Of a stretch of DNA of 64,000 nucleotides, positions 2,787 to 26,798 are shown one piece after another (position 1 is the stretch's first letter; each line of letters starts with the position of its first letter). The stretch covers positions 35,954 through 99,953 of IMG/VR virus record IMGVR_UViG_3300021256_000006. The stretch is one strand, 5' to 3'. Made by a program: the position numbers and the translations under genes. A model generated the notes under the pieces. The model saw nothing but the letters and a program-made list of their open reading frames with translations, did no database searches and was not told the origin of the DNA. This stretch comes from a virus.

Positions 2787-3401
2787 ATGGAAAAGACAAT
2801 TATTCAGCAGTTCAATGAACTGAAAGAGAAGCACCCAACGGCAATCCTCCTGTTCCGGTGTGGCGACTTCTACGTAACCTACGAGGATGATGCTCAAATC
2901 TGTGCAAACGTGTTGGGCATCACCCTTACCAAACGAACAAGCGACGGCACTCGCACGGCAGGTTTTCCTTACCATGCTCTTGACACATATCTTCCCAAAT
3001 TGGTACGATACGTGAATCAACCCGAAAGCATTATGAAACGTATCGCTATCTGTGACCAGTTGGAAGACCCACAGACCCAAAAACTTGTGAAGCGAGGCAG
3101 TAACGAATTAACCAAACAAGGAGGACTAACAATGAAACTTTTCCACGATGTAGGCATTAACGAGCCTTGCCGTGACATCAAAGTCAACGGCAGAAAAATC
3201 ATGGCAAACGTGTGGGGAGGGCAGACGGAAGTCACCCTCACCACATGGAGCGAAATCCGACGACTGGGGTTCAAGAAAAGAGAGCGAGCCTTCGGCAACC
3301 TTAACGACGGAACTCCCGCACTCTACTTTCAAGCATGGGACGAACAAAACAATAACCACTGGTTTCTCACCACAGAGAAACTTGAAGAGCTGGAGGACTG
3401 A
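2787..3401 (+). CDS. MutS domain I (mismatch-binding domain)-like stand-alone protein
   Basis: The N-terminal ~110 aa ('[17 protein letters not shown]...GITLTKR...[16 protein letters not shown]...[10 protein letters not shown]') aligns by eye with the E. coli MutS N-terminus ('LLFYRMGDFYELFYDDAK...ISLTKRG...AGIPYHAVENYLAKLV...VAICEQIGDP'). No ATPase or clamp domains follow. Confidence 0.75.
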
Positions 3402-5576: not shown

Positions 5577-5653
5577 CCCCCAGGGTGTGTGAGTGTAGCA
5601 AATATCTCACACATCCACTAATTTCAAATTCATCATCTAAATCATCAACAATT

Positions 5654-8600
5654 ATGGCAACAAAACTACAAAGGCTTCGCGACAACATCGAAGCCATCAG
5701 GCACGCCCTGACATCCCCGCATTACGATGCCGACATCATGAACAAGTACACGGGATTTGGCGGCATGACTTTTCTCCTCAACAACTTGGAGAAGAAATCA
5801 TGGAGCAAGACTGACAAGCCCTGCTATGACGACACCGTGAAACTGCGCCAGCTGCTGCATGACAAGAGCGAGAACGAGAAACAATACGAGGCATGGATAC
5901 AGAGTCTGAAGGCAAGCACATCTACCGCCTACTACACACCAAGGGAGATTCCTCAAACGCTCTTCGACAATCTCTACCACATGGCAAAAGGTTGGTACGA
6001 CAGCAACATCTATCCCAAAAAGGTGCTTGACCCATCAGCAGGAACTGGAGTCTTCATGTGCTCTGTCCTCCAAGCCTCTCTGGATTCCGGCAACATCCCT
6101 AAGCAAGTGGGCTACGAACTTGACCTACTCACAGGAACTATCCTCAAACAAAGACTCCTGGGGCATGACATCCGCATCAAGGGTTTTGAGACCATCCCGA
6201 ATGAAGACCTCGGCACATTCGACCTCGTGACCACCAATGTTCCCTTCGGCAACATCAACGTGTTTGACCCTCTCTACACCAATAGCAAGGAGCAAGTGAA
6301 AAGGGATGCAGCAAAGATGATCCACCGCTACTATGTGCTGAAAGGTCTTGATTGCCTCCGCAATGGAGGAGTGCTTGCCTACATCATCACCAGCAACTAC
6401 ATCAACCGTGACAACGACCAATTGGCAGAAGCGCTGAAGCACGCCAACCTCGTCACCGCCATCCGATTTCCGAACAACCTCTTCAAGGAGGCGGGAACAG
6501 AAGTAGGGACCGACCTTCTCATACTCCAGAAGGACGAGCACAAGCAAGCTCTCACAGAAGACGAGCAGCAACTCCTCACACCTATGGAAATGGACGATTG
6601 CCCAACCAACCTCTACTTCAACAATCATCCCGACCACATCATTGCCACCTCCACCGAGATAGGCACCGACCCCTACGGAAAGCCTGGCTATATCTACTAC
6701 CACAAAGACGGAGTGCAAGGCGTAGCCGCAGACATGGGCCGCTTGCTCAAAGCGGAATTGCCAAACATTGACAAGTCTGCCTTTCAAAAGGGCCCCTCAC
6801 TCTCTCCATCTTCCTCCCTTGCAGTCAGCGGTTCCCCCGCTGACACCACTTCCCCCGCTCCCACCGCCAAGCATCCCATTCCTAATTCCTCATTCCTCAT
6901 TCCTAATTCCGAACCCCTCTTCTTCCACTATGCCAACAAGTTTTTCCTCTTCTTCACCTTTGCACCAAGCAAGCATCAAGCACCTGCAAGCAAAGAACAG
7001 AAACTGAAAAACTTGCACAAGTTATACACCGACCTCTACAATTACGAGGCAAGCTATCAGAACGAGGACGAAGAAGGGCGCTGCAAGTTGAATGCTTCTT
7101 ATGATTTGTTCGTCAGGTCTTACGGTTTCCTGAACGATTCCAAGAATGCTTCTCTTGCCAAGCGTTTAGGCATTACCGACTTGCTTGCCATTGAGCGTTA
7201 CGAGAATGGCACATGGGTAAAGGCAGACATCATGCTGGCACCCGTCGCCTTCTCCACCGACGAGGAACCGAAAGCGAGCTCACCCCAAGAGGCATTGGCA
7301 GCATCGCTGAATAAATACGGAAAGCCCAATATTGATTATATGCTCTCCATCACCACCTGTACCCGTGACCAACTTCTCAGCGAACTGCATGACGAGGTGT
7401 TCCTCAACCCCATCAACGGGCAATACGAAGTCAGGGCAAAGTTCCTCAGCGGAAATGTGATTGAGAAGATTGATGCAATCGAAAAACTTTCAGCTTCTCA
7501 ACTGTCAACTGCGACCTGTCAACTTTCGCTGAAGGCTCTCAAGTCTGTCATCCCCGCTCCCATTCCTTTTGAGGAACTTGACTTCAACCTTGGCGAGCGC
7601 TGGATTGACTGCAAGGTGTATGAGCGCTTCGCCAACGACTTCTTCTCCATGCCTGGCAACACTCCCGACATCGAGGTGCGCTACAATCCTCTCCTCGACC
7701 AGTATGCAGCAGGTCTCAGGAAATGGGACTGGAATGAGAAGATACGCACTCAGTACGCGGTCAAGAGTGAAGCATCCAAGACGCTTGACGGACTTGAAAT
7801 ATTCACTCATGCCCTGCATAATACAATACCCAAGTTGATGAAGTATCAACGAGACAAGGAAGGGCGCATCATGACGGACGAGAACTACGATAAAATTAAA
7901 ATAGAGGACTCGGAGAATATGCAGTTGGCAGCAACCAAGATTGAAGAAATCAGACAGGCATTTGAGGAGTGGCTACGCCGACAGCCAAGGGAGTTCAGGG
8001 ATGATTTGGCCAGCGTATACAACCATCGCTTCAACTGCTTTGTCAAGCCTAAATATGACGGTAGCCATCAGACATTCCCGGACCTCAACATGAAAGGGCT
8101 GAAAGAAAAGTATGGCATTGACCACATCTACGACAGCCAAAAGGATTGCGTCTGGATGCTCTTGCTGAATGGTGGTGGCATCTGCGACCACGAGGTAGGA
8201 AGCGGAAAGACACTCATCATGTGTATTGCAGCCCACGAGATGAAACGTCTCGGACTGTGCCACAAGCCAATGATAATAGGCATGAAGGCCAACGTGAGTG
8301 CCATAGCAGAAACATATCGGACAGCATATCCCAATGCTCGCATCCTCTTCGCTACAGAGGCTGACTACTCGGCAAGCAACCGTATGGCGTTCTTCAACAA
8401 CGCCAAAAACAACGACTATGACTGCATCATCATGAGCCACGACCAGTTCGGACGTATTCCACAGAGCGAAAAAATACAGCTCGACATCATGTGCGACGAA
8501 CTGCGACAGGTAGAAGACAGTCTGACAGCAATGGAGGATTGGGGCTACAAAGTGACTTCAAAAATGCTCCGTGGATTGGAGATTAGAAAGCGCAACCTTC

Positions 8601-10675
8601 ACGCAAAAATCATGAACCTCCGCAATTCTATCAATTCGAGGAAGGATGATATTGTGGACTTCGAGAGGCTGGGCATTGACCACATCTTCATTGACGAGAG
8701 CCACCAGTTCAAGAACCTCGGCTTTGTGACACGGCATGACCGCGTGGCTGGCATTGGCAACACACAGGGCAGCAAGCGTGCTTTCAATCTGTTGATGGCC
8801 ATCCGCACCATACAGAACCGCACAGGGCGTGACCTCGGTGCCACCTTCCTCAGTGGCACCACCGTTACTAATTCCCTCACAGAACTGTTCCTTCTCTTCA
8901 AGTATCTCCGGCCCAATGCACTTCGCAAACAAGCCATCACTTGCTTCGATGCTTGGGCTGCTATATTCACGAAGAAGAGCACGGAGTTCGAGTTCAATGT
9001 CACCAACTGCATCGTTCAGAAGGAGCGCTTCCGTTACTTTATCAAGGTGCCGGAACTCGCCATGTTCTACAACGAGATTACAGACTTCCGAACGGCAGAG
9101 GATGTCGGCATCGAACGACCCCAAAAGCATGCAAGACTGCTGAACATAAAGCCGACACCGGACCAAGAGGGCTTCATTGAGCGTCTGATGAAGTTTGCGC
9201 AGGGAGGTTCCCCTTCCCTGATATTCCGTGAAAGCCTTTCCGACAACGAGGAAAAGGCGCGTATGCTTATCTGTACCGACCTCGCTCGAAAGATGTCTCT
9301 GGATATGCGGCTGATTGACCCTCGCTTTGGTGATCATCCATCCAACAAGGCAAGCCAATGCGCCAACCTCGTCAAGAAGTATTATGATGAATATGACGAC
9401 CAACGTGGCACACAGCTCATCTTCTCCGACATATCCACATGGCAAAACAATACCGATTGGAGTGTGTACAGCGAAATCAAGCGAAAGCTGATGGACATGG
9501 GCATACCTGGCAGCGAAATCAGGTTCATTCAGGAGTGTAAGAACGACCACCAAAAACAATTGCTCATTGAGCAGGTCAACCTCGGATATGTGCGTGTCCT
9601 CTTTGGCTCCACATCCATGCTGGGTACCGGAGTGAACCTCCAGCAGCGAGTGGTGGCCGTGCATCACCTCGACACACCGTGGCGACCTTCCGACCTCGAA
9701 CAGAGAGACGGACGGGCCATCCGGAAAGGAAACGAAGTGGCACGGCTCTATGCCAACAACCAAGTAGATGTTATCATCTATGCTGTTGAACGCTCGTTGG
9801 ACTCTTACAAGTTCAATCTCCTGCACCTCAAACAAACCTTCATCAACCAACTCAAACGAGGACAACTCGGAGTGAGAACGATTGACGAGGGCAGCATGGA
9901 CGAGAACGGCATGAACTTCTCGGAGTACATGGCTATTCTTTCCGGCAACACCGACTTGCTGGAACGTGCCAAACTGGAGAAGCGCATTGCCATGCTGGAG
10001 GCCGAACGCAAGAACTTCTACCGTGACCAGCGAGAACAAGAGGAAAAAATGGAAACGCTGAAAAAGGATAACGAGCTCTACAAAAATCACCTTGCAGACG
10101 CCCAAGCCGACTTTGCCAAGTTCAACAAAGCAAGGCGCCTCGATGAAGAGGGCAATGTAGTGAACGACCTCCGTCTGGATGGTCTCGCACTCAGCGGTTC
10201 CCCCGCTGAGATACAAACCCTCCTCGGCAACCACCTCATCAAAATTGCCAACACCGCCAGAACACAAGATGCCCACCTTCCCATCGGCTCCATCTATGGA
10301 TTCAAGGTGCTGGTCAAGACGGTGGAGACAGCAACGATGGACGGCAATCCGCAGTACGCTAATATGTTCTTTGTCAGCAGCGACACACTCATGTATTCTT
10401 ACAATAATGGCTACATCAATCGCAACTCTCCCAAGGCATCAGCACTCTACCCGCTGAACGCCTTGCAGCGCATCCCGGAAATCATCACTGGGTGGATGGA
10501 GAAAATCGAAAGCAACGAGAACAGCATCAAGCAGATTGCATCTATCCTTTCCGCAACGACTGAATGGTCAAAGGAGGACCGTTTGAAGCAGCTGAAGAAT
10601 GACCTCAAACTTCTTGACAAGAAGATTGAGGAAGACATGAAGAAAAAGGACGAGCCCACCAAGAAAGCAGCCTAA
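5654..10675 (+). CDS. fused N6-adenine DNA methyltransferase / SNF2(SF2)-like helicase (polyvalent-type)
   Basis: Start chosen at ATG 5654, behind the conserved leader. Methyltransferase-like motifs are 'DPSAGTGVF' and 'TTNVPFG'. Helicase motifs are 'EVGSGKTL' (Walker A), 'IDESHQFKN' (DExH), 'GSTSMLGTGVNLQ' and 'QRDGRAIRKGN'. Confidence 0.85.
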   Translation: MATKLQRLRDNIEAIRHALTSPHYDADIMNKYTGFGGMTFLLNNLEKKSWSKTDKPCYDDTVKLRQLLHDKSENEKQYEAWIQSLKASTSTAYYTPREIPQTLFDNLYHMAKGWYDSNIYPKKVLDPSAGTGVFMCSVLQASLDSGNIPKQVGYELDLLTGTILKQRLLGHDIRIKGFETIPNEDLGTFDLVTTNVPFGNINVFDPLYTNSKEQVKRDAAKMIHRYYVLKGLDCLRNGGVLAYIITSNYINRDNDQLAEALKHANLVTAIRFPNNLFKEAGTEVGTDLLILQKDEHKQALTEDEQQLLTPMEMDDCPTNLYFNNHPDHIIATSTEIGTDPYGKPGYIYYHKDGVQGVAADMGRLLKAELPNIDKSAFQKGPSLSPSSSLAVSGSPADTTSPAPTAKHPIPNSSFLIPNSEPLFFHYANKFFLFFTFAPSKHQAPASKEQKLKNLHKLYTDLYNYEASYQNEDEEGRCKLNASYDLFVRSYGFLNDSKNASLAKRLGITDLLAIERYENGTWVKADIMLAPVAFSTDEEPKASSPQEALAASLNKYGKPNIDYMLSITTCTRDQLLSELHDEVFLNPINGQYEVRAKFLSGNVIEKIDAIEKLSASQLSTATCQLSLKALKSVIPAPIPFEELDFNLGERWIDCKVYERFANDFFSMPGNTPDIEVRYNPLLDQYAAGLRKWDWNEKIRTQYAVKSEASKTLDGLEIFTHALHNTIPKLMKYQRDKEGRIMTDENYDKIKIEDSENMQLAATKIEEIRQAFEEWLRRQPREFRDDLASVYNHRFNCFVKPKYDGSHQTFPDLNMKGLKEKYGIDHIYDSQKDCVWMLLLNGGGICDHEVGSGKTLIMCIAAHEMKRLGLCHKPMIIGMKANVSAIAETYRTAYPNARILFATEADYSASNRMAFFNNAKNNDYDCIIMSHDQFGRIPQSEKIQLDIMCDELRQVEDSLTAMEDWGYKVTSKMLRGLEIRKRNLHAKIMNLRNSINSRKDDIVDFERLGIDHIFIDESHQFKNLGFVTRHDRVAGIGNTQGSKRAFNLLMAIRTIQNRTGRDLGATFLSGTTVTNSLTELFLLFKYLRPNALRKQAITCFDAWAAIFTKKSTEFEFNVTNCIVQKERFRYFIKVPELAMFYNEITDFRTAEDVGIERPQKHARLLNIKPTPDQEGFIERLMKFAQGGSPSLIFRESLSDNEEKARMLICTDLARKMSLDMRLIDPRFGDHPSNKASQCANLVKKYYDEYDDQRGTQLIFSDISTWQNNTDWSVYSEIKRKLMDMGIPGSEIRFIQECKNDHQKQLLIEQVNLGYVRVLFGSTSMLGTGVNLQQRVVAVHHLDTPWRPSDLEQRDGRAIRKGNEVARLYANNQVDVIIYAVERSLDSYKFNLLHLKQTFINQLKRGQLGVRTIDEGSMDENGMNFSEYMAILSGNTDLLERAKLEKRIAMLEAERKNFYRDQREQEEKMETLKKDNELYKNHLADAQADFAKFNKARRLDEEGNVVNDLRLDGLALSGSPAEIQTLLGNHLIKIANTARTQDAHLPIGSIYGFKVLVKTVETATMDGNPQYANMFFVSSDTLMYSYNNGYINRNSPKASALYPLNALQRIPEIITGWMEKIESNENSIKQIASILSATTEWSKEDRLKQLKNDLKLLDKKIEEDMKKKDEPTKKAA
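6824..6844 (+). repeat. 8-bp-stem hairpin (GTCAGCGG-TTCCC-CCGCTGAC) inside the MTase-helicase ORF
   Basis: The 17-nt core CAGCGGTTCCCCCGCTG is identical to the copies at 10190 and 43622. The outer base pair covaries. Confidence 0.8.
10190..10210 (+). repeat. 8-bp-stem hairpin (CTCAGCGG-TTCCC-CCGCTGAG) inside the MTase-helicase ORF
   Basis: Identical 17-nt core. It encodes 'SGSPA', as at 6824. Confidence 0.8.
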
Positions 10676-10963: not shown

Positions 10964-11032
10964 CCTGCGTACAGCGGTTTTCCCGCTGACACCGCTCAAT
11001 CACCCTCCCTGCGTACAGCGGTTTTCCCGCTG
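10964..11032 (+). repeat. two copies of the CCTGCG-YN-CAGCGG-TTTTC-CCGCTG hairpin element
   Basis: Two identical 25-mers, CCTGCGTACAGCGGTTTTCCCGCTG, at 10964-10988 and 11008-11032. Confidence 0.85.
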
Positions 11033-11060
11033 TCTCCCATCTTATATAAATAATGTGTAC

Positions 11061-11098
11061 TGCAACTTCAAGACAAAAAAGTTGCAAAACATGTTGCA
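11061..11098. promoter_or_regulatory. TGCAAC/GTTGCA inverted and direct repeat cluster (operator candidate)
   Basis: TGCAACTT-N10-AAGTTGCA (8-bp dyad) plus a third GTTGCA at 11093-11098. It lies 40 nt upstream of the TAACTTTG box at 11138. Confidence 0.35.
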
Positions 11099-11137
11099 TA
11101 ACATAAAAATGATGTAACAAAATACATCAAAACACGA

Positions 11138-11145
11138 TAACTTTG
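11138..11145 (+). promoter_or_regulatory. -7 box TAACTTTG
   Basis: Matches TAnnTTTG, 66 nt upstream of ATG 11212. Confidence 0.45.
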
Positions 11146-11211
11146 CAAACAGAATCAATAAACGCTGCGCCAGATAGCAAAACCAAATCCCAAGGGCATG
11201 GGTAACAGATT

Positions 11212-12327
11212 ATGAAAAAGTTCACAGCATCCGAGAACGCAACACGCAAGCAGGTTTTCGCCTACAACCGCGAGAGGTCAAAGAACTCATGGATGGACTC
11301 TTGCACCAAGGTATTCGGCAAGAGTAAGGTTGTTCGCCAGGCCATCGAAGACAGCAACAAGCGCATTGCTTCTCACACTACAGTTCTTACAGGTATCGAC
11401 GCTTACAAGGCTCGATTGAAGGACCGCCTCGAAGGTTTTGCCGCTTGCCTTCCTTCATCCGGTTACAGCATGGGCGAGTTCAAACACATTACTTGCCGCC
11501 ACCTGGGCATCGTTTCTTCTTACGACGCTACCGATGAATACGCAAGGTCTTGCAAGTTCCGCGCAACTCACGGACGTGTAGAGGTTGAGCTTCCCGTTCG
11601 CTTGCTCGCCAAGGCTGAGAACATGGACGGCATGATTACCATCCGCACCAAGCAGATTCAGAATCGCATCTGGAAGTGCCAGTGGGTAGAGTTTGACTAC
11701 ACCCGAAACGGTCGTGGCATCATCAACAGCGAGGTTGGCTACCATCTGGTAAGTGGTTACGTTGTACGCTATGAGAACCACCGAGTTGAGACTTACGCTT
11801 TCAAGAATGGTAAGAACAACACATCAGGCGTTGATTACATCGGAGGTTGGTATCACACCACATCACTTGACAAAGCTCGCAAGAACTTGAAGAGATACCT
11901 TGCTGAAGAGAAGTATTACACCAAGTGTCACGCCATCTTCGCAAAGCGTCGCGCTATCGAAGAGAAGGAGGACGAGAAACGCGCCAAGGCTGAAGCTCGT
12001 GCCAAGGCAAAGGCTGCCAAGGAGTTTGCCAAGCAGGTGAAGCGCGTACAGAAGAGCACCGAACTTTCCGACATCCTTCAGCACATGTACGTCTATCAGG
12101 ACAGCATCAAGGCTGGCAACTGTGTGCCCGGAACCGATGGATTCCTCAAAGCTCACAACCTTCAGAAGACTGACACCCGTAGCGGTGAGTTTCTTCTCCG
12201 CATCAGTCGCCACACATGGCAGCATAAGAACGTCATCCGCGTCCTTGTCCGCTACGCCGCTGACACTCACACCGATTTCTATCAGCAGAATCAGGAGGCT
12301 GTTCGTTCAATTCTTAATACTTTATAA
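11212..12327 (+). CDS. hypothetical protein
   Basis: 371-aa ORF downstream of the TAACTTTG box at 11138. It has a Lys/Ala/Glu-rich central segment. Confidence 0.65.
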   Translation: MKKFTASENATRKQVFAYNRERSKNSWMDSCTKVFGKSKVVRQAIEDSNKRIASHTTVLTGIDAYKARLKDRLEGFAACLPSSGYSMGEFKHITCRHLGIVSSYDATDEYARSCKFRATHGRVEVELPVRLLAKAENMDGMITIRTKQIQNRIWKCQWVEFDYTRNGRGIINSEVGYHLVSGYVVRYENHRVETYAFKNGKNNTSGVDYIGGWYHTTSLDKARKNLKRYLAEEKYYTKCHAIFAKRRAIEEKEDEKRAKAEARAKAKAAKEFAKQVKRVQKSTELSDILQHMYVYQDSIKAGNCVPGTDGFLKAHNLQKTDTRSGEFLLRISRHTWQHKNVIRVLVRYAADTHTDFYQQNQEAVRSILNTL

Positions 12328-12383
12328 TCCTACTTCATTATATAACCCAACAGCCCTCGACATCACGGTTAAGTCAGGAACTT

Positions 12384-13196
12384 ATGAAAACAATGGAATG
12401 GAAAGATTACCTGAATACTCAGCAAGATGCCTATTTGGATGAAGAAAATGGTGCTGACAACGAGGTTGCATATAAGAATGATGACTATACAGTATGGGCA
12501 CACCAGTCATTACACGCAGACGGAGAACATTTCTTCAGTGGTAGCGGCATTGATTTCGCGATGGTTAGCAACAACGCTGAATACGAATACCTGTGCTATG
12601 ACTGCACGCTGAATGAGATTATCAAGAGTCTGGCTCCCGATGCTGAGACTATGCAGGACGTAGCCGACTACTACAACAATTGCGAATCCCTCGACACCCA
12701 GGCTCTTGAAGCCATGATTGAGGCTAACGGATGGGTAAGCGATTGTGATACCGAGTGGGGTGTATGCCACAACGACACAGAGAGGGTGATCATCAACGAT
12801 GAAGGTCAGGCTGTAGTTGTTTCGATGGAAAAGAACTCAGCACTTGCCGCGCTCATGGATGTTAGACTTCAAATTGCGGTCGAAGGTTGGACTATCCCCA
12901 CCAATGACGAAGGTAGTGGCAGCGCAGGCGTGAACTTCCTGACAGACACCGAGGCTGTTGATGCTTACATCCGCTTTGCCTTGACAGGTGACAACACCGA
13001 TTGTCCTAACACTAACAGCATCGAGTATGTTCCTGTTGCTGATTTTGGCGACACCGAGAATGAAGTGCTCGACGAGATTATGCAGTACGCTCACATTTGC
13101 AACGTGGAACGTGACGAGGTTCTTGGATTCATCGTCTGTCACGAAGCATATCACGATATGCCTTACACATTCTACATCACTCACATTCGCGGATAA
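12384..13196 (+). CDS. hypothetical highly acidic protein
   Basis: 270-aa ORF, rich in D/E. No motif recognised. Confidence 0.6.
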   Translation: MKTMEWKDYLNTQQDAYLDEENGADNEVAYKNDDYTVWAHQSLHADGEHFFSGSGIDFAMVSNNAEYEYLCYDCTLNEIIKSLAPDAETMQDVADYYNNCESLDTQALEAMIEANGWVSDCDTEWGVCHNDTERVIINDEGQAVVVSMEKNSALAALMDVRLQIAVEGWTIPTNDEGSGSAGVNFLTDTEAVDAYIRFALTGDNTDCPNTNSIEYVPVADFGDTENEVLDEIMQYAHICNVERDEVLGFIVCHEAYHDMPYTFYITHIRG

Positions 13197-13226
13197 TAAC
13201 GAACGAAAGCATTATATCATATAATT

Positions 13227-13445
13227 ATGAATTTACTCCAACTATCAGCAGTTGCACAGGCATACTACGAGGGGCTTCGCGCCCCCAGCCTGGCGCAAGG
13301 GTGGGAAAAGTATGTCGCCACCAACGGCACAACGTGTATGTTTGTTCACAGCGACTACAACCCACAACCAGGCGAGGCAGTCTTTTTCCTCGCAACGAGA
13401 AACCGTCAAATCAGTTGTCAACTCTACAAACACGTTGAACCATGA
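13227..13445 (+). CDS. hypothetical protein
   Basis: 72-aa ORF whose stop overlaps the next start (ATGA at 13442). Confidence 0.5.
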   Translation: MNLLQLSAVAQAYYEGLRAPSLAQGWEKYVATNGTTCMFVHSDYNPQPGEAVFFLATRNRQISCQLYKHVEP

Positions 13446-13915
13446 AGGCTCCACAAAAACCGCTCTTCATCATCGACTCGTCTCACACTCATGGACGAGG
13501 GACAGAGACAGAATGGGTGAGCTGCACATCATCAAGCTGTCCATTTGTGGCAAGTGTTGTCGTTGTCAGTGAGCAAGAGTACAACAGGCACTATGACCCT
13601 GCTGATACAATGACCGCTTACTCGGACGTACAAAATGGTATGCGCCTGATGGTTCACGTCACCAACATTGACACCGAGCATGACCCTTCACAACTCCGTA
13701 CCTTGCTGCGCAAACTTGTGAAGGAGTTAATGCTTCGGAAAGCCATCGTTGAGTATTCACCAGAGGCACCGTCAGACGAAGCCATCATCAAGTTCATTGA
13801 GATTCTGCAAGGGCAGAACCGCGAGAACCTGCGCACGGAACCTAACGAGCAGACACACCGAACGGTGTATGCGCTCCTGAAGAAGATGCACGATGACTAC
13901 ACGAACAAGCAATAA
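13442..13915 (+). CDS. hypothetical protein
   Basis: 157-aa ORF followed by an 8-bp hairpin terminator at 13925-13948. Confidence 0.6.
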   Translation: MKAPQKPLFIIDSSHTHGRGTETEWVSCTSSSCPFVASVVVVSEQEYNRHYDPADTMTAYSDVQNGMRLMVHVTNIDTEHDPSQLRTLLRKLVKELMLRKAIVEYSPEAPSDEAIIKFIEILQGQNRENLRTEPNEQTHRTVYALLKKMHDDYTNKQ

Positions 13916-13924
13916 CAAACGAAG

Positions 13925-13948
13925 GGAGGGAGCCAACAGACTCCCTCC
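13925..13948. terminator. bidirectional stem-loop terminator
   Basis: GGAGGGAG-N8-CTCCCTCC, a perfect 8-bp stem. It lies 3' of the + gene 13442..13915 and 3' of the minus-strand Cas12a-repeat RNA. Confidence 0.5.
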
Positions 13949-14011
13949 TAAGATACTAATTTGTGAGCAATTCACATACCGCTTTTGCGGTTATCTACAA
14001 TAGTAGAAATT
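13925..14011 (-). ncRNA. solitary Cas12a (type V-A) crRNA repeat unit: Racr-like or crRNA-like small RNA
   Basis: Minus strand 14011->13993 reads AATTTCTACTATTGTAGAT, the 19-nt Cas12a handle (UCUAC-UAUU-GUAGA stem-loop). A TACCTTTG box lies 8 nt upstream. About 45 nt of unique sequence follow, then the terminator hairpin. There is no second repeat. Confidence 0.7.
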
Positions 14012-14019
14012 CAATGCTG

Positions 14020-14027
14020 CAAAGGTA
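14020..14027 (-). promoter_or_regulatory. Bacteroidota -7 box (TACCTTTG) upstream of the Cas12a-repeat RNA
   Basis: The reverse complement of 14020-14027 is TACCTTTG, matching TAnnTTTG. It could instead be a remnant of the 5' 'ACCUUUU' part of a native Cas12a repeat. Confidence 0.45.
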
Positions 14028-14089
14028 CTGAGTATGCACGGTGTGAACAAACAAAAAAAGATGTTTAACGACATAAAACCACTACAATT

Positions 14090-14251
14090 ATGACTGCAAA
14101 ACAACTCGACCGCCTCATTGACGAGCTTCTTAATCTAACAGAAGAAGAACGTAAGCAATTCCTAAGCCGGATGCGACAAGTGATAAAGTCCACAGCTTGC
14201 AACTGTGAAGACCTTGCCAAAGCCTTTTCTAATTTCACGCAAGAAGAATGA
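14090..14251 (+). CDS. small acidic protein (53 aa), candidate anti-CRISPR by context
   Basis: Hand-translated ORF (MTAKQLDRLIDELLNLTEEERKQ...). It is translationally coupled (ATGA overlap) to the downstream XRE HTH gene and is divergent from the Cas12a repeat unit. Confidence 0.45.
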   Translation: MTAKQLDRLIDELLNLTEEERKQFLSRMRQVIKSTACNCEDLAKAFSNFTQEE

Positions 14252-14469
14252 ATACAAGAACTAATATCGGCAAGCGCATTGCCGAACTCCGAGAACAACA
14301 AAATCTGTCGCAGAGAGAGCTGGCCCGTCGATGCAACATTGACCAGGCTCACATATCCAGAATAGAGCGAGGACTGTTATCGCCATCTCTCGACACGCTT
14401 GCAGAAATAGCGGAAACACTTGATGCCAAGGTGGAACTTGTCCCCTGCGCTCAACGGTTTTCCCGTTGA
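14248..14469 (+). CDS. XRE-family helix-turn-helix transcriptional regulator (Aca-like by context)
   Basis: 'IGKRIAELREQQNLSQRELARRCNIDQAHISRIERG' is a typical Cro/CI-type HTH. The C-terminus and stop codon lie inside hairpin element 14444-14468. Confidence 0.8.
   Translation: MNTRTNIGKRIAELREQQNLSQRELARRCNIDQAHISRIERGLLSPSLDTLAEIAETLDAKVELVPCAQRFSR
14444..14468 (+). repeat. hairpin element, CAACGG/CCGTTG stem variant
   Basis: CCTGCGCTCAACGGTTTTCCCGTTG, with a compensatory G->A / C->T change in the stem. Confidence 0.8.
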
Positions 14470-14505
14470 AAAATAAAAATACTAATCATCAAATCTCAAA
14501 CAACT

Positions 14506-14955
14506 ATGTTAACAATTATCGCAATCATCATCACAGCAGTAGTGGCAGCATCACTTACTTTTACAGCCACACGCTCACTCTACATTCACCGCTTTGCGGA
14601 ATGGTATCGCCAAGCCGTTGACAGCGAAGACATCAACGAAACAGCAAGAGCTGAAGGAGACGCCATGTATAATACGCTTTACAACAAGTGGCACATGATC
14701 CGGGAAGTGGACAATTCCATCATCCCAGAATATGTGTCCCAAAAATTTGACGTCGAAGGAGATGTGTTCACACAATGTGACCTGCGCTTCAATTGCCGTG
14801 TGGCCCGTTGGTTGGGTTATGACCTCACATTGACTAAGCGTGACGTTCCGCCACCACCACCATTCAAACCATCTTCCCCCAAAAACATACGCACCGAATT
14901 GGTGGAGTGCATAGATGCAACATTAAGCGCCGAAGATGAACAGGAAGAATCATGA
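14506..14955 (+). CDS. membrane-anchored hypothetical protein
   Basis: N-terminal hydrophobic helix 'LTIIAIIITAVVAASLTF' and a Pro-rich C-terminal part. Confidence 0.6.
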   Translation: MLTIIAIIITAVVAASLTFTATRSLYIHRFAEWYRQAVDSEDINETARAEGDAMYNTLYNKWHMIREVDNSIIPEYVSQKFDVEGDVFTQCDLRFNCRVARWLGYDLTLTKRDVPPPPPFKPSSPKNIRTELVECIDATLSAEDEQEES

Positions 14956-15135
14956 ATGTAACCGCAATTATGTTAAATACCGAGGGGAATGCCTAAAAAA
15001 GACGGCACCTTATAAGGGTGTCGCCACTTGTGCTTAGCAATCAAATGCAGAAACTCTTACCACTCCGTACACATAATTGCCATACAGCATAATATTGATT
15101 CCAGTTGCTTTATGTTTGGTGTTCTCGCAATCCCA

Positions 15136-15879
15136 TCACAGGGAGTCGCTAAAATCTTCTGCTACTTTCATGCTTTGCTCGTCCAGCTCACCAAGTGCAG
15201 CAGCAAGTTCACGGCTTTTCCTGCCAAGTGCTTGCCTGAGCCGTTCCACCTCCTGCTTCAGTTCAGCAACGGTCGCCCGCTCCTTATCCAGCTCTCTCAC
15301 AAGCCTTGCATTATAGGACATCACGTCAATATTGCGTGCCGAGAGCGCTTGTAGGCTCCCTTCTTTTCGCCCCATGTACCCGTCCAGCACAGGAACGTCA
15401 ACAGAATTGCTGGTGAAGAAGTCTAAAGGATAAGTCTTTGTCTTGTTGCACATCCTTAACCATTTCTGTATCGTGATGTTAGGCCCTATCGTGTTGCAAT
15501 TGCGGAAATTGCCGTAAAATGTGGTCGCGCTGATGCCCACAAGAGAACAGAAGTCTAAGACCTGCCTTCCTTGGATGGTTGTCACCTCTTCCCCAAATTC
15601 TTTGTTCAAGAATCGGATGCGGGTAAAAGAATCGGAGCGTTCTATGTAGTGTCGTCTTCCCACATGCACCTTTGTGGACTCTTGGGTGCAGATGAAATGT
15701 CCGATTTGTATTTTCAACGTGTTGCACAAGTTCAAAAGATTAACGATGGGCAGGTCGCCAGAGCGACGCCACCGTCTCAGGGTCGTGTCGGTTACTCCAA
15801 TCGCTTGTGCTACCGAGTGCGCACTCATTTCCAGCAAGGTTGGCAACGAACAGAAAAGACTCTCATTAAAATAATACAT
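15136..15879 (-). CDS. HTH-domain regulator with C-terminal coiled coil
   Basis: Start moved to ATG 15879 (MYYFNES...). 'SAHSVAQAIGVTDTTLRRWRRSG' is HTH-like, and a second HTH-like segment is 'CSLVGISATTFYGNF'. The tail is heptad-like. A TAAATTTG box (minus) sits at 15888-15895. Confidence 0.6.
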   Translation of the reverse strand: MYYFNESLFCSLPTLLEMSAHSVAQAIGVTDTTLRRWRRSGDLPIVNLLNLCNTLKIQIGHFICTQESTKVHVGRRHYIERSDSFTRIRFLNKEFGEEVTTIQGRQVLDFCSLVGISATTFYGNFRNCNTIGPNITIQKWLRMCNKTKTYPLDFFTSNSVDVPVLDGYMGRKEGSLQALSARNIDVMSYNARLVRELDKERATVAELKQEVERLRQALGRKSRELAAALGELDEQSMKVAEDFSDSL

Positions 15880-15887
15880 AATCACAA

Positions 15888-15895
15888 CAAATTTA
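15888..15895 (-). promoter_or_regulatory. -7 box TAAATTTG immediately upstream of the ATG at 15879
   Basis: The reverse complement matches TAnnTTTG and lies 8 nt from the start codon, implying a leaderless or near-leaderless mRNA. Confidence 0.4.
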
Positions 15896-16074
15896 CATAA
15901 AAACAATATACTGGGGACGTTATCCTGTCTAAAAATCCTCTGTTTACGAACAAACTTAGGGCTAAAATCCAATTCATGTGCGAATGAGTTAAGCCGTCAT
16001 AATTAAATTACTTCATCCGGTTTCTCACTTTTTTGGCTACAAATTTATGCGCACATATTGTATATATATGTATG

Positions 16075-16082
16075 CAAAAGTA
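16075..16082 (-). promoter_or_regulatory. -7 box TACTTTTG (minus strand)
   Basis: The reverse complement matches TAnnTTTG. It lies upstream of the HTH regulator gene. Confidence 0.35.
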
Positions 16083-16217
16083 TGTTTTGCAGCATGTTTT
16101 TCCTGTTGAGAACTTGGCTTCCTAAAGCAAAGTTCTCAAAATTTTTTCATCACCCCAACCACCAAAGGCCAAACTATGCCCTTTTGTCACTTACCCCCCC
16201 CTTTCTCCCTCCTCTCT

Positions 16218-16242
16218 CCTGCGTCCAGCGGTTTTCCCGCTG
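16218..16242 (+). repeat. hairpin element
   Basis: CCTGCGTCCAGCGGTTTTCCCGCTG. The flanking genes are on the minus strand, but the element is still in + orientation. Confidence 0.85.
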
Positions 16243-16262
16243 TCTCTCCCTCCCCCTCACCC

Positions 16263-16294
16263 AAAAAGCGCCCGACTTTCACAAGCCGGGCGCT
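16263..16294 (-). terminator. Rho-independent terminator of the tape measure gene
   Basis: On the minus strand, AGCGCCCG-N12-CGGGCGCT (8-bp GC stem) is followed by TTTTT, 33 nt after the stop at 16327. Confidence 0.7.
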
Positions 16295-16326
16295 CCCCAA
16301 AACAATCAATTAAAAAAAGAAAACGA

Positions 16327-19300
16327 TTACAAATCTATACCTCGTCTTTGCGCAAACCTGTCGCCTTTCTTCCCCGTTGCTCTCATGCCATACTTTCCAT
16401 AGTAGTCCACGATGGCGGGGATTCCAGTTTGCTTGATGTCTGCAAGCACAGAAGACAGTTCAGAAAGAGTTTGTCTCATGCTCTCCATAGTGCCATCGGT
16501 TGAAGGCATAGATGCAGGACTGATAACCTCTCCGATATTTCCGTCTGCATACGCGCGTACACCTCCACGATTCATCACCACCTCATTGCCCATTCTTGCA
16601 GTCTTGGAGAAGTCAATGCTCCGCATTCCATACTGCTTCATGGCATAAATGCGTCGCAGAGTCTCGGGGTCATACCGTTTCAGTCCTTCGTAAGTCTGGT
16701 GGTCGATAATGACTTCTGCCCCTTTCTCGCCCACGATGCCTAAATGAGGCCCGTTCACCACGCCCGTCTTCAAGTTGGGCTGGTACTTGGCAGCATACGT
16801 CTGCCCGTCATTGCCCCTCACACTCACCAACTGGCCCTGCACACGTCCGTTTCCATCATCCGCATACGCTCCATTCGCATACACTGGATAACGGCCCTTG
16901 CCGTAGGTCAGCATACCTGTAGCAAGTTTGCCAGCACTGCCACTGCTCACGCCAGTTGCAGCAGAAATAGCGCTTCTCGCTTTGGCTGACAATGCGCTGA
17001 ACACCATGGTCATTAAGAGAGAAAGCCCGGCACCAATAGCCCAGCCAATCCAACCAGCTCTTGATGCTTCTTTGGCTTGTGCGCTGGCTGCATCTGTGGC
17101 ATTCTGTGCCAATTTCACGGTCTCTTCGGCTTGTGCAGTCTGTCCCCATACTTTCATTTTTGCCGCTTGTGCTTCAAGTTCGATAGCAAGGAGTTGCTGC
17201 TGCTTGACTTGCTCGTTCAATACTTCCATTTTGTCGAACATCTGCTTGGTGGAGACATAAACAAGCCATTGTGTCAGCATCTTTCCTGTTGTTTGAATCA
17301 AATTGGCGAGTGCTTCTCTTGCGGCTTGTTGTCTGTCCTCTTTTTTGCCAAACATATTGGCACCAAAATCTTCAGCGAATGAATGAAGATTGTCATAATA
17401 GGGCTTAATCTGTTCAACGCTATTGGTCATCAGCTCAAACTGCGCTTGAGTTGCATTTCGCTGGGCTTCTTCCACATCATGCCATGCTTCTGCCTCTGCT
17501 TTCATAGAGGCGGTCTTCAGCGCCTCTGCCTCTTGCATCAGTAAAGCCTTCTCTTTCGGGTCGCCTTCCAGTTCAATTCTTTTCTGAATAGCGGCTATCT
17601 CCTTAGCATATCGCTCCTTGTCGAGCAGGTATTGCTCTTTCTTGATGGCAAGTTCTTCTTTAAGGATGTCGATGTTTGAATACTCTGAAGTGGTCACTCC
17701 TGCAACGTCATTTCCAGCCATTCCCCACGATTCTGCCACGCCTTCCGTCTGCTGGCGCCTTGATAGGCGGTTCGTTCTTTCTTCCCATCGCTGATTTTGC
17801 GATAGACCATCTTCTCCAACCATGCTCCGCTCCAGTTCAATTCTTCGCTCAATCTTCTTAATCATCTTTCGAGTGGCATCTTCATAATCATCGTAGAAAC
17901 TTTGTGTTTTGAGCACAAGGGCCGACAGCGCATCGGGTGAAAGGCTTTCAATCCATGCGTTAATGGCTGGGTTGCCGTTCTTTTTGGCGTCTTCTTTCAG
18001 TTCTTCGGCAGTCAACGCATATCCTTTTTTGGCTTCCTCCATTAAGAACGACATGCGCTCAATCATCATCTTCCGTGTTTCTTCTTCCGTGTGCAGCATG
18101 GCTTCATCGGCATCGTTCCAAAGCACACCGAGGTCTGCAAGGTCTTTGGTGAACGATTCCGCAACTTTGGCAATTGGGCGCTCGTCCAGCAGCACCTTCA
18201 GGATTTTTTCTCTATTAGCACGGATATTTTTCTCCAACTCATTCTCGTCTTTGGCAATGTTCAGCTTGATGCCATCCACCATATTCTGCCCCATACCTTT
18301 CAAGAATTCACTCAATGCAGGGAAATCAACCCCCTTCATCAGGTCTTTCACACCCTCTGTTGCAAACTCATGACTGCTGTCAAGCCATTTCTTGCGAAGG
18401 TTCTCACGTTCTAACAGGTGCTCTTGCTCGTTGGCATACATATAGCGGTTGTATTCATCCTCGCCAATCATCCCCTCATTCAGATACTTCTCTGCCATCA
18501 TCTTTCTCCGTTCGTAATATTCTTCTAACTTCTTCAAGGTGGCATCCATCAGTTCCTTCATTTCGGTTTCTTTCTTCCCTCCCTTCTTGTCTGTAAAGTC
18601 TTTGAAGTCACCTTTAGGGTTGGCAAAGTTATCTGTTTCTTGCATTTTCTTTGCTTCTTGCCAGTTGGTATATGCCCAATTTCTGATCTGCTCCTTGGTC
18701 CAGAAGTTGATGTCGGACGGAATGGTTACGCCTGCAGGTGTCTTGTGGGCGCTGGTCCGCTGAATGTCTTGCCCTGACCTCCAGTTTTTATAGATGTCAT
18801 TGAAGAAGTCAACAACGTCGGCCAGGTCTGCTCCGGCCTGCTCGGAAAGGTCAAAGGAAGTCTTTCCCCACGGCTTGATGTATTCAAGCAACTGGGGGAT
18901 TGCTTTCGCGAACTCTTTGGAATACTTGTCTCCGTATTTATTGCGTGGGTCTTTATCGTATTTCTCGTTTAATTCTCTGTACTTTGTGATATTGGCATAC
19001 AGCTCTCTGTATTCCATGCCAGTCTTTTGGGGATTTTGCTGGGCTGCTACAATCTGCTTCCTCAGTTCTGTCATAAGACGGATTTCCTCGTCTTGTGCCA
19101 TTTGTTTCTGACCTTTGGCTTGCTCCACAAACGGTGCCCTCACCATTTCTCCTTCAAACACAGCGTTGATATAATCATTCACGGCTTTTTGAAGGCGTGT
19201 GGTCCGTGATTGGGATTTGGCAGCGACGCGCTTTCCCCCGCGCACCATCATGATTTGACCAGTCAATTGATTGGTTTCGTACTTGGTGTTGCTGTCTCCT

Positions 19301-22300
19301 CCTGTTCCCCAGGTGGTTGCCACCAGTCTTTGGTCATTGCCAAGTCGTCTGCCAAGTTCGGCTTGTATGCGCTGTTTCAGCTTTTCTTGTTCCGACTTGC
19401 TTTGCGGAATACCTTCTTCTGTCATTTGCAGCACCACGCTCTGTATGCTCGATGCGATATTGCTGCGGTCGTAGGAGGAAATACCTTTCCGTTTGGCCCA
19501 GTTCTCGCCCAGATTACCTTGCATGAGCGCTTCTATCATGGCGCCGATGGCTTCTCTTTGGTCGTCCCCACTGGCTTCTTCTGCTGCTTGTTTGCCTTTT
19601 TCTTCCATGGCTGCTGCGTTCTTTTCGCGGATGGCTGCGGCAGCTTCATGATAGGCTATTTTCAACCGTTTGGCAACGTCTTCTTCACGGAGAAGTTTCG
19701 AGAGGTAGCCTCCGAACATACGGTTAAAGGCGTTGATTTTGTTGGTTCTGTCTTGCTGGGCAAGGTTCACATTCTTCAAACTGCGGTACAGGGAATTAAG
19801 GCTTGCGATTTCATCCTCGACCTTGTTTTGAAGTTCACCAAGACTCTTCCTTGCGTCTGCTGTGGCTTTGGCTGTGCGCATGAGATACCCTATCAGCATG
19901 CCTAACGCAGTCAGTACAAGTCCAATCCAGTTACTGCTCCACGCAATCTTAAAGCGCTCTGTTGCCTGTCGCGCTTTTTCTGCAGCGACGGCGCTTCCCA
20001 GCAATGCGGCGGTCTTTAAGGCAAGGACCTTGACGCCTTGATACATGATTTGTATAAGCCCGAACAATGTTCCCTTGAATCCTTTATAGGTGGATTCGTT
20101 CAATGCGGCAGCGACTGAATCCTGCCACCACGCTTTGGCGTTGACAATAAGTTGTTTGGTCAGTACGAGCAATGTGGCAATGACAACTCCGCCAAGGATA
20201 TTCCACTCTCTCAGCCATTTTACAAAGCCGAGCAGCGTATTGGCCGCAGTCAGCATTGAGCTATTGGTTCCTTCTACACTGGTGGTCATCTCGTAGAACT
20301 CATTGCCTACCTGTGCCATCACACCGGCCAGGTTGTTGTTGGCTCGCTCAAATTCTTGCGTGACAAGGGTGCCTTCCGCAAATCCTTCCTCTGCAAGGGC
20401 AACTTGATAGTTAAGTTCGCCTATGTGTTGGCTTAACAATGCCATGGCGTTTCTTGCCTGAACATTGTTTCTGCCTCCTATGGCTTTGAAGAAATTGTCA
20501 TATACGGCAGGACCTTGCTCGCCCAGTTCTGTCAACACAAGCTCTAACGCCTCAAAGGTTTTGCCAGCTTGTATCATCTGGTCAAGTTCGTCATAACCGA
20601 TATTCAGGGCTTGTGCCACGTCTTTGGTATGAGACACAATGCCGAGAACCACACGCTGTGTGGCGGTTGAGGAGCGTTCCATGGTCTCGCCTAACGAGCT
20701 GAAGGCTCCGCCTAAACCGAAGATTTGCTGCATGGTCAGTCCGGTCACACTTCCTGTTGCGCCTAATCGCTTGGTGAACTCTACAACGTCTGCGTAGGTG
20801 GCTTTGGAGTTGTTACCGACATTCAAAATAGCAGAGCCAATCTTGTTCAGGTCTTTTTCCAAACCCTCGCTCTGCTTGTTGACAACATCATTCACCTTCA
20901 GCAGGTCGTTGATGGCCTCTGCGCCGCCAATATCACCAAGGGTGTTAAGAATCTTCTGTCCTTCTTTCACGAAAGAGACAAGACCGTCTGCACCTTCTCG
21001 GGTCGCAATACCCAGTTTACCTGCCTGTTCTGCCATCTCCATCAACTGCTGATTGCTCATTCGGGTGTCAATGGACTGAATGGCATTGGTCATGTGCTCG
21101 ATTTCTTCTGTTGTCAACTGCGTGACTTTTTGTACATTGGTCATTTGGTCACTCAGCTCAATCGTGTTATGGATGATTTCTCGTGTCTTGTTCATCAAGG
21201 CATTAAAGCCAATATAAATCATCACATAGTTTTTGAGTCGGCTGAAAGCATTTTCAAGCGTAGAGACATGATGTGCCATGTGGCCGTTCAACCGCTTCAC
21301 TTGCTCGTTGATGGCTTTGAGTTGCATCGCCTTCTCGTTGTACTCTTTCTGTGCAGGACTCAGGCTTTCTATCTCTTTTTTCAGCGTCTCGTAGGCGTTC
21401 TTCAACTCTGTCAAACTGCGCTTCTTTAACTCGCTTCCTCTGTATTTCTCCCACTTGATTTCGCTGGATGCCACCTGCTTTGTCTTCCGGTCAATGGCAG
21501 TCAGCATGGTCTCTATTTGCTTCAATTGCTCCGGATCTGCGTTTTTAAGACTCTTCTTGAAGGCTTCAAGGTTGGTCCGAATGGCTTGCAGTTCCTTGGT
21601 AGAGGAAGGCAATATTTTGACAACGCGACCAACTCCTTCTATTGCTGCGTCGTGAAGATTATTGAAGGCTTGTTCTCCGTCAATTACATCTTGCTTGGTT
21701 TGTGCAAGGGCCTCGTTGAGTTTGTTGATGGCGTTAGTCGTCGCTTCCAGTCCAGAACGGTCGTCTGTGCGCAGTTCACTCTTGTATGCCTGTATCTTTT
21801 TGATGGCTTCTTCGGTCTCCTTGATGGTGCCTTGGAACTGCCCATTGTTGACCTGCGTAACTAATGCTTGACCTTCACTAATAGTCGATAATTGTTTGCG
21901 ATATTCAAGTTCTGCATTAAGTGCTTTTAGGTGGACTGTAGCCGTTTCTATCTCCTGACTTCCCTGCTTTGCCTTTTCCTGTACCGTCGTCCAATATTTC
22001 TGCAGGTTGGCTATTTCTGATTTGCTAAGTTCTGAAACGTGATCCATCTCTACAGACATTTGTGTAAACATGCTTGTTCCAGCCTTGTATTTCGATGCGT
22101 CTTGGTAGGTCTGTAGATATTGTGTGCCACGAGCAATGGCGCTGTTCAATTTGTTGGCATATTCTTCTGTAAGGTTTGTCTGCTGCGCAAATTTTTGGAG
22201 ATACTCCACAGATTTCTGTACTTCTTCAGGCGTTCGGAGGTCCATAATGCCTTTTTGGAGACTTTTTAGGCTTTTTTCAAGAAGAAGACCTCTGGCCTCT

Positions 22301-25221: not shown

Positions 25222-25235
25222 ATCAATTCCCTAAT

Positions 25236-25291
25236 TGTCAACTATCAACTGTCAACTATCAACTGTCAGCTATCAACTGTCAATTATCAAT
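25236..25291. repeat. heptamer microsatellite (TGTCAAC/TATCAAC) x8
   Basis: Eight contiguous 7-mers alternate TGTCAAC and TATCAAC, giving a 14-nt period. Confidence 0.9.
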
Positions 25292-25942: not shown

Positions 25943-25947
25943 ATAAC

Positions 25948-26776: not shown

Positions 26777-26798
26777 AAGTCACAGGCCGAATGGCAAT

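Follow-up and report, generated by a model that had tools for sequence, protein, structure and literature searches.

Two kinds of described viral counter-defence element come closest to the locus considered here: operons that join an anti-CRISPR gene (acr) to an anti-CRISPR-associated gene (aca), and RNA anti-CRISPRs (Racrs). Both have been described already, as has their co-location. The pairs acrIF1–aca1 of Pseudomonas phage JBD30 and acrIF8–aca2 of Pectobacterium phage ZF40 are examples of the operons. Aca proteins, for which the families Aca1–Aca14 are distinguished, are in most cases regulators of the helix-turn-helix (HTH) type co-encoded with acr, and they frequently govern anti-defence operons nearby (10.64898/2026.07.27.740549). 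The surroundings of Racr candidates, within 1 kb, are significantly enriched for acr genes, an acr–racr operon has been validated, and the loci reported include RacrIC1–AcrIC5 and RacrVA1–3, the type V-A Racrs being inhibitors of Cas12a (Camara-Wilpert et al. 2023, PMC10651486). Another phage RNA, the Cas-repressing Cracr, needs at least 9–10 nucleotides (nt) proximal to the protospacer-adjacent motif (PAM) that match a host cas promoter, and is often found alongside Acr proteins; AcrIF24 is discussed in the same work (Liu et al., 10.1101/2024.10.29.618823). Here we analyse a locus in a 64,000-nt stretch of viral DNA (IMG/VR record IMGVR_UViG_3300021256_000006, positions 35,954–99,953; the window, in whose own coordinates positions are given unless a contig is named), where a 53-amino-acid (aa) open reading frame (ORF) and an XRE-family HTH gene lie beside a solitary Cas12a repeat unit and face away from it.

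The reading that we favour, with about even confidence, is that the two genes encode the protein component of a compact and exchangeable counter-defence cassette, in which the 53-aa product, called p53 after its length, is the leading anti-CRISPR candidate. That p53 is an anti-defence protein of some kind seems to us slightly more probable than the contrary; that it acts on Cas12a specifically is possible, and doubtful. The acr–aca reading is strengthened because an identical HTH protein occurs with different cargo, because an HTH fusion stands beside a homologous repeat, and because p53 is a hot spot of divergence. The elements of the locus are as follows.

14090–14251, plus strand: p53 ORF, 53 aa, ATG start; a fast-evolving accessory cargo gene and candidate anti-defence (anti-CRISPR) protein.
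14248–14469, plus strand: XRE-family HTH gene, 73 aa, ATG start; 3′ end of the cargo slot and candidate Aca-like regulator.
14446–14468, plus strand: copy of a dispersed hairpin motif, TGCGCTCAACGGTTTTCCCGTTG, which forms the 3′ end of the HTH gene.
14506–14955, plus strand: gene for a 149-aa protein with an N-terminal membrane helix, 36 nt past the HTH gene.
14052–14089, plus strand: A-rich conserved leader, which precedes whichever cargo gene is first.
14020–14051, minus strand: Bacteroidetes-type promoter of the repeat RNA, a consensus match only (sequence and motif scan).
13993–14011, minus strand: AATTTCTACTATTGTAGAT, the solitary repeat unit of Cas12a (type V-A) and, as a Racr-like decoy, a candidate RNA anti-CRISPR.
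13978–13991, minus strand: hairpin 2, ACCGC-AAAA-GCGGU, starting 2 nt past the repeat and predicted to lock the seed positions of a CRISPR RNA (crRNA).
13962–13976, minus strand: hairpin 3, UGUGA-AUUGC-UCACA, in DNA the palindrome TGTGA-N5-TCACA, conserved in the window-type, L010 and L137 variants.
13925–13948, minus strand: G+C-rich terminator hairpin that ends the repeat RNA, found by a terminator scan and present in the minimum-free-energy fold.

The initial annotation, made from the letters of the window, had described the two ORFs as overlapping, and they do share the four bases ATGA (14248–14251). Its proposal of an acr–aca operon is supported in part, by the layout and by the comparative pattern set out below; similarity to a known Acr did not appear.

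The comparison of related contigs carries most of the argument. An HTH protein 99% identical to that of the window (P0006) occurs as one amino acid sequence on five contigs, one copy being cut short, and the gene upstream of it could be read on four of the five. The gene orders observed are these.

Window, L002, L004, L136, L147 and L148: 157-aa gene, terminator, repeat RNA (minus strand), leader, p53, HTH gene, 149-aa gene.
L137 and L139 (the latter spanning only the end of p130 and the HTH gene): variant repeat, then the Cys-rich p130 ending 8 nt before the same HTH gene; p53 cleanly absent.
L138: p131, then 170 nt of unrelated DNA and a p53 remnant (its last 37 nt) before the HTH gene.
L001 and L003 (a different backbone): repeat RNA, then p143–p197–p130–p53; HTH gene lost.
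L140 (backbone about 70–85% identical): repeat RNA, then directly an HTH-like frame; no cargo.
L010/L133 (an IMG/VR contig that also carries an integrase): gene for a 141-aa protein and, divergent from it, a homologous repeat element.

In every architecture observed the solitary Cas12a repeat stands on the far side of the slot, and the leader that separates its promoter from the start codon of the leading cargo gene is conserved irrespective of which gene that is. There are two conserved anchors, the putative decoy RNA and the HTH gene, with exchangeable cargo between them. The 141-aa protein of L010/L133 combines a C-terminal HTH 46% identical to that of the window with an unrelated acidic N-terminal domain of 78 aa, which has no detectable similarity to p53. 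In L001 the HTH gene is frameshifted by an internal deletion and in L003 it is almost wholly deleted; p53 is intact in both, lying there within a longer operon, and the hairpin motif copy 14446–14468 is retained at the right-hand junction of both deletion variants. The leader and the 3′ end of p130 share TTTAACGA.ATAA.AAAAC, and recombination at these repeats would convert the order leader–p130–p53 into the leader–p53 of the window; the leader stretch TTTAACGACATAAAACC, with which the p130 gene of relatives ends at its 3′ side, is a likely crossover point. An earlier view of 14060–14089 as a remnant of the p130 3′ end was dropped, since alignment A6 resolved it as a conserved leader sharing a short repeat.

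The 149-aa gene is part of the conserved backbone, outside the variable slot, and probably shares a transcript with the HTH gene; in L133, too, the HTH fusion has a short membrane protein after it. As a means of finding further cassettes the homologues of the 149-aa protein were set aside, as they lie mostly in unrelated contexts (restriction-modification systems, helicases) and L140 alone was informative. The HTH-like frame of L140 (5740–5960 of that contig), by eye about two-thirds identical to the HTH of the window, has no ATG, GTG or TTG after the preceding stops, which makes it a pseudogene or a frame with a non-canonical start. The alternative cargo p130 (L137 2328–2720; L138 274–669; L001 2164–2556; L003 334–729) is a Cys-rich protein of 130 aa, in which CAVCGK...FCSDTCAAH forms a zinc-finger motif of the FCS/TRASH-like kind. 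Family models and a protein search of GenBank phages gave no match to this orphan, which may be regarded as a second Acr candidate.

Rates of change within the slot differ sharply from those beside it. Among the syntenic contigs compared (window, L002, L136 and L004), p53 differs at 10–16% of its DNA sites, against 2–5% for the repeat plus leader, 1–2% for the HTH gene and 2.5–5% for the upstream 157-aa gene, a 4.0–5.7-fold excess over the flanks (Fisher P 1e-5 to 3e-10). Pairwise nonsynonymous divergence (dN) is 0.085–0.30 for p53 against 0.006–0.023 for its neighbours, with 0.006–0.012 for the HTH gene. The ratio of dN to synonymous divergence (dS) of p53 is mostly 1–2.9; the gene has only about 32 synonymous sites, so that the ratios are individually not significant. 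They would fit a constrained core with diversifying ends, and relaxed constraint as well.

That p53 is a real protein-coding gene is very probable. Its frame +0 has a codon log-likelihood of 0.236 per codon, the best of the six frames and in line with the 0.21–0.22 of the neighbouring genes. The small ORF is found intact in related phages: six alleles of 56–96% identity are all open, a 3-nt indel keeps the frame, and the other changes (a 1-nt indel in L136, the deletion junction in L003) touch only the last 2–3 codons. Substitutions are unevenly placed, the longest invariant run being 28 nt (P=0.023), and in a post hoc split the codons of the conserved core have a ratio of nonsynonymous to synonymous polymorphism (pN/pS) of 0.41. 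Three sample sets contain copies of the locus that equal the window base for base, and independent gene callers predicted p53 on these as well. The product had been called acidic, which applies only mildly in the window (isoelectric point, pI, 5.05; 10 D+E against 8 K+R); the homologues have pI values of 4.1–4.9. The p53 model made with AlphaFold2 from a five-sequence alignment has three helices at a mean predicted local distance difference test (pLDDT) score of 75. On the opposite strand, an ORF at 14065–14352 was rejected as a gene: its codon score is −0.43 per codon, and it runs antisense through the well-supported HTH gene.

The assignment of the 73-aa product to the XRE-type HTH proteins stands, with Pfam HTH_3 at 4.1e-17 (residues 11–61) and HTH_31 at 6e-14, and PHROG transcriptional regulators at 4e-16; it has no oligomerisation domain. 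Its closest solved relatives include SinR, C.AhdI and C.BclI, and PADLOC 'control protein' models match it at 1.8e-10, while its scores against HigA, HipB, MqsA and RstR-type models fall under their cut-offs. Of the 78 PDB sequences that matched at E<=10, the 60 listed include no chain named Aca. The family matches place the protein in the generic XRE/HTH_3 superfamily, and the term Aca-like is suggested by layout. Outside the lineage its closest relative is a 67-aa HTH, 53% identical, at 25–225 of L132, which adjoins a tRNA 3′ fragment (300–370 of L132, a likely attachment site) and a tyrosine integrase. An HTH protein of L098, 37% identical and adjoining a host array, was discarded as an unrelated bacterial regulator.

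The second anchor is the repeat RNA. The 19-mer AATTTCTACTATTGTAGAT has one exact match in 64 kb, where shuffles predict 0.02 copies, and it is intergenic and outside any array. As a CRISPR array repeat it is found in more than 120 genome loci, many of them of Bacteroidales, Prevotella, Paludibacteraceae and Muribaculaceae (gut and rumen samples). In the relatives it is conserved (L002, L004, L136) or present as variants (L001, L010, L137, L140). The minus strand from about 14019 to 13912 folds into four hairpins, namely the Cas12a handle, hairpins 2 and 3 and the terminator, with an energy of −39.5 kcal/mol (z = −5.7 against shuffles). The stem CCGC/GCGG of hairpin 2 is preserved in seven of eight homologous elements while its loop varies freely, and its closing pair covaries (AU in four, GC in two, GU in one). 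The terminator stem, directly after the stop codon (13915) of the upstream plus-strand gene, is likewise preserved through base changes in relatives, and the promoter elements are conserved with it.

By its position hairpin 2 would occupy the would-be crRNA seed. The repeat RNA is more likely a guide-less decoy of the Racr type than a Cas-repressing Cracr, because the seed is predicted to be paired in a hairpin with compensatory change in the stem and a variable loop. A Cracr reading, with a guide against the cas12a promoter, found no supporting match, and the covarying hairpin speaks against it: in 148 loci, in which cas12a promoters are poorly sampled, there was no TTTV-flanked match to the spacer-like region. 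Rfam returned nothing at the gathering threshold for the window and nothing at E<=10 for 13800–14200, and a scan of IMG/VR for the repeat plus hairpin 2 returned L010 alone. In other IMG/VR phages the −7 box also directly precedes Cas12a repeats (L006 4628–4686, L011 11070–11123, L008 12727–12745), some forming mini-arrays of two repeats with 16–21-nt spacers, others a lone repeat that has a GNRA-type hairpin (UACCC-GAAA-GGGUA) and a terminator after it; repeat RNAs of Cas12a with a promoter of their own thus appear to be recurrent in these phages.

The promoter of the repeat RNA consists of a perfect Bacteroidetes −7 box, TACCTTTG, at 14020–14027 and a −33 element, TTTG, at 14048–14051, 20 nt from it, both on the minus strand; across all relatives the box is conserved or near-conserved. 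A sigma-70 promoter scan was set aside, the promoter signals here being Bacteroidetes-type. The initial annotation had put the box about 60 nt from the start of the pair, and from its end to the p53 ATG (14090) we measured 62 nt. The divergent transcription proposed at the same time holds as regards opposite orientation; the divergence is, as far as the letters go, one of geometry, and a divergent promoter for the pair would be putative. Within the leader, ATGT-N6-ACAT (14061–14074) is a weak candidate site for the HTH protein, of low information content: ATG.T.....ACAT is invariant across five diverged leaders in alignment A6, and the dyad alone is not statistically significant.

We would accordingly picture the cassette in the following way, were the favoured reading right. 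The repeat RNA would bind host Cas12a as a guide-less decoy and titrate it, as a Racr does. The p53 protein would be a small early inhibitor of a host defence system, most plausibly a CRISPR effector, translationally coupled through the overlap to the HTH protein, which, acting like an Aca, may lower expression of the locus after a first burst. The pattern as a whole is what might be expected of an acr–aca locus adjoining an RNA anti-CRISPR in a DarB-like anti-restriction neighbourhood. A more far-reaching version, which we consider rather unlikely, is that the decoy-RNA gene and the HTH gene form a portable exchange platform, with the HTH protein controlling the shared 80-nt control region and hence both the Racr and the protein cargo. 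On such a platform, cargo (p53, p130, p143, p197) would move by recombination at the short direct repeats at its junctions, and hairpin 2 would be specifically adapted to turn the RNA into a dead, guide-less ligand of Cas12a. We know of no report of a protein-regulated Racr.

Several results weigh against the cassette reading. No −7-like box with at most one mismatch lies on the plus strand in 13900–14095, and the pair may be read through from the upstream operon (from 13442–13915), which is possible because the terminator 13925–13948 has no T-run on the plus strand. The operator dyads expected in the gap did not emerge: 14012–14095 holds one imperfect 7-nt dyad, where 0.8 would be expected by chance. 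An ORF of the length of p53 stays stop-free by chance with P=0.25, so its openness is weakly informative; the antisense ORF 14065–14352 is open in all alleles too, and a dN/dS near 1 would be equally expected of a drifting, unconstrained ORF. The gene has been deleted at least twice in sister phages and is therefore dispensable. Searches for relatives of p53 gave nothing significant in Pfam, PHROGs, NCBIfam, PADLOC or the PDB sequences, and no Acr among the latter at E<=10. A profile search of 1.84 billion representative proteins returned its own cluster and low-complexity matches only; IMG/VR held no relatives, a protein search of GenBank phages no match, and the JGI metagenomes a single 26-residue match at 38%, judged spurious. 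The confidence of the predicted fold is moderate, and Foldseek found zero PDB matches for it and none in BFVD better than E=0.69. Structure prediction and profile searches, which the initial annotation had recommended as a route to known Acr families, thus yielded no related sequence or fold; the PDB sequence search at E<=10 and Foldseek against PDB showed no similarity to the solved AcrVA proteins, of which AcrVA1, AcrVA4 and AcrVA5 have structures in the PDB. The function proposed for p53 would accordingly be one drawn from context. Finally, 1066 spacers from 120 Cas12a loci gave no match to the window of at least 20 nt, and the host was not identified in this way.

The surroundings of the cassette are rich in counter-defence genes. 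Upstream lie a DarB-like antirestriction protein of 1696 aa with methyltransferase and helicase regions (5585–10675, plus strand; PHROG 1.4e-261), an LPD11/DUF7659 protein (3558–4658, plus strand) and a protein with MutS domain I (MutS_I; 2787–3401, plus strand), a set typical of polyvalent anti-defence proteins. An acidic 270-aa gene (12384–13196, plus strand; pI 4.05) has no family match and is missing from the otherwise syntenic L002; it is a second accessory gene, and its product could be a DNA mimic. Downstream are a second HTH gene (15136–15972), convergent rather than divergent, and a tail tape-measure gene (16327–23067); no integrase turned up among the window ORFs scanned. GenBank phages gave no DNA match to 11000–16300 and no protein match for the C-terminus of the tape-measure protein. 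The phage is a siphovirus of an uncultured lineage, and its host is probably a member of the Bacteroidales.

Elsewhere in the window some further features were observed. A reverse transcriptase of 442 aa (43660–44988, plus strand; PHROG 1.9e-42), possibly part of a diversity-generating retroelement, lies just downstream of the repeat pair D19 (42928–43046 and 43300–43418, 83% identical). The dispersed hairpin motif, CCTGCG[YY]CA[GA]CGGTTTTCCCG[CT]TG, has at least 15 copies, all of which lie on the plus strand whatever the direction of the genes and most of which are intergenic (starts at 10956, 11000, 14446, 16210, 23133, 25294, 27527, 27601, 30545, 33647, 33728, 50359, 50442, 51331 and 52876); it could be a terminator, a regulatory element or a recombination site. 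Often adjoining it are intergenic tandem heptamers (TCAACTG/TCAACTA, ATTCCTC/ATTCCTA), hexamers (TTTTCG/TCTTCG) and octamers (CACATTTT), at 25217–26060, 26745–26890, 30573–30680, 50479–50600, 51206–51500, 52765–52900, 53626–53722, 60857–60909 and 61498–61640, a repeat-rich architecture that is unusual for a phage genome. Two pairs of long direct repeats, about 5–6 kb apart, occur in the block of minus-strand genes (54681–54980 and 60907–61206, 300 nt, 93% identity; 56165–56426 and 61568–61829, 262 nt, 80%).

The points against the favoured reading leave room for other explanations. That p53 is a genuine slot gene with a target other than CRISPR (restriction-modification, abortive infection, host takeover or the exclusion of rival phages), and the HTH protein a general regulator of the slot, is in our view unlikely, if far from negligible. 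The neighbourhood is anti-restriction (the DarB-like protein, polyvalent-protein domains), not anti-CRISPR, homologues of the 149-aa protein elsewhere adjoin type I restriction-modification systems, proximity is the sole tie of p53 to Cas12a, and anti-defence islands are known to mix specificities (10.64898/2026.07.27.740549); on the other hand, Cas12a is the only defence that the cassette would address, through a repeat RNA present in every architecture observed, and the enrichment within 1 kb of racr candidates is one of acr genes specifically (PMC10651486). The initial annotation had itself named a toxin–antitoxin or lysogeny-switch module as the alternative. A type II system or switch of this sort, with the HTH protein as antitoxin or repressor, is very improbable: the sub-threshold scores against HigA, HipB, MqsA and RstR-type models and the presence of HTH relatives (34–53% identity) near integrases in L132 and L134 speak for it, but p53 matches no toxin family, the putative toxin persists where the antitoxin is deleted (L001, L003), and cargo is swapped under an unchanged HTH protein. 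The scan that turned up no integrase and the convergent orientation of the other HTH gene argue further against a lysogeny switch. RelE/HigB-type toxins are, moreover, larger than p53.

The gene for SinI, a small helical protein, lies just upstream of sinR, and p53 might by analogy be a partner or antagonist of the HTH protein, the two forming a switch that times the repeat RNA and the downstream genes with no direct host target. This we regard as improbable. A small helical protein directly upstream of, and coupled to, an XRE HTH protein whose solved relatives include SinR would suit it, as would the extra N-terminal domain that the L010/L133 HTH bears in place of a separate small gene and the lack of Acr homology in p53. 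The 73-aa protein, however, has no oligomerisation domain to receive a partner, the identical HTH protein is found without p53 in L137, L139 and L138, and p53 remains intact where the HTH gene is destroyed. A partner should also co-evolve, yet between L136 and the window the HTH protein differs at one residue while p53 varies by up to 30%, and between L002 and L136 the HTH protein is identical while p53 varies by 22%. Only a small probability likewise attaches to the view that p53 is non-functional, whether as a remnant in decay or as a leader or upstream ORF that delivers ribosomes to the HTH start. An overall dN/dS of about 1, an ORF that chance would leave stop-free in a quarter of cases, repeated deletion, orphan status and the coupling suggested by the ATGA overlap are what such a view would predict. 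It fits poorly with codon usage equal to that of the neighbours and specific to the frame, with uneven constraint around an invariant 28-nt core (P=0.023) and, post hoc, a core pN/pS of 0.41, with a body free of frameshifts in all six alleles, with the retention of an intact p53 after loss of the HTH gene, and with a three-helix model of sufficient confidence.

Should p53 or p130 inhibit Cas12a, it would represent a very small new family of Cas12a inhibitors from gut or rumen Bacteroidales phages, from which the Racr, Cracr and Aca literature cited here describes no characterised inhibitor of this enzyme, and it could serve as a compact off-switch for Cas12a tools. Near-identical backbones that differ only in cargo offer a clean natural experiment, which could show in what way anti-CRISPRs of RNA and of protein are brought together, controlled and swapped, and the seed-occluding hairpin points to a simple rule for designing RNA decoys of Cas12a.

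Set beside the known systems, the locus shares with the SinI–SinR pair and with the controller (C) proteins of restriction-modification systems an HTH protein whose closest solved relatives include SinR, C.AhdI and C.BclI; it differs from the former in that the 73-aa protein lacks a C-terminal domain of the SinR type and can do without p53, and from the latter in that no restriction-modification genes adjoin the HTH gene of the window. With acr–aca operons it has in common small, unrelated, fast-changing genes directly upstream of a co-oriented, small and conserved HTH gene, upstream genes swapped before a constant HTH protein, and an anti-defence neighbourhood. Unlike those operons, it offers no homologue of a validated Acr, no clear inverted-repeat operator or strong promoter, and an HTH gene repeatedly lost in one lineage (L001, L003), and its host is probably one of the Bacteroidota, with different promoter and translation signals. 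AcrIIA1 and AcrIF24 are Acr proteins fused to an HTH regulator, and L010/L133 is like them in that the place of p53 is taken by an unrelated acidic domain of 78 aa, fused to a relative of the HTH protein; in the window p53 and the HTH protein are encoded by separate, overlapping genes. CracrVA1 resembles the repeat RNA as a phage-encoded single pseudo-repeat of type V-A with a spacer-like stretch and a rho-independent terminator, whereas here the PAM-proximal nucleotides are paired in a hairpin whose stem is conserved by compensatory change and whose loop is variable. With Racrs the likeness lies in a solitary repeat unit in a viral intergenic region with a candidate protein anti-CRISPR within 1 kb. 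Rather than sharing a transcript with the protein genes, the RNA here has a predicted promoter of its own and is divergent from them; it appears to carry a conserved hairpin over the seed positions, and the repeat and the HTH gene would together bracket an exchangeable cargo slot. What the locus may add is new in degree: the orphan candidate inhibitor families p53 and p130, a putative V-A decoy RNA with a covarying, seed-blocking hairpin, and an apparently exchangeable slot bracketed by an RNA gene and an HTH gene, in what are probably phages of Bacteroidales.

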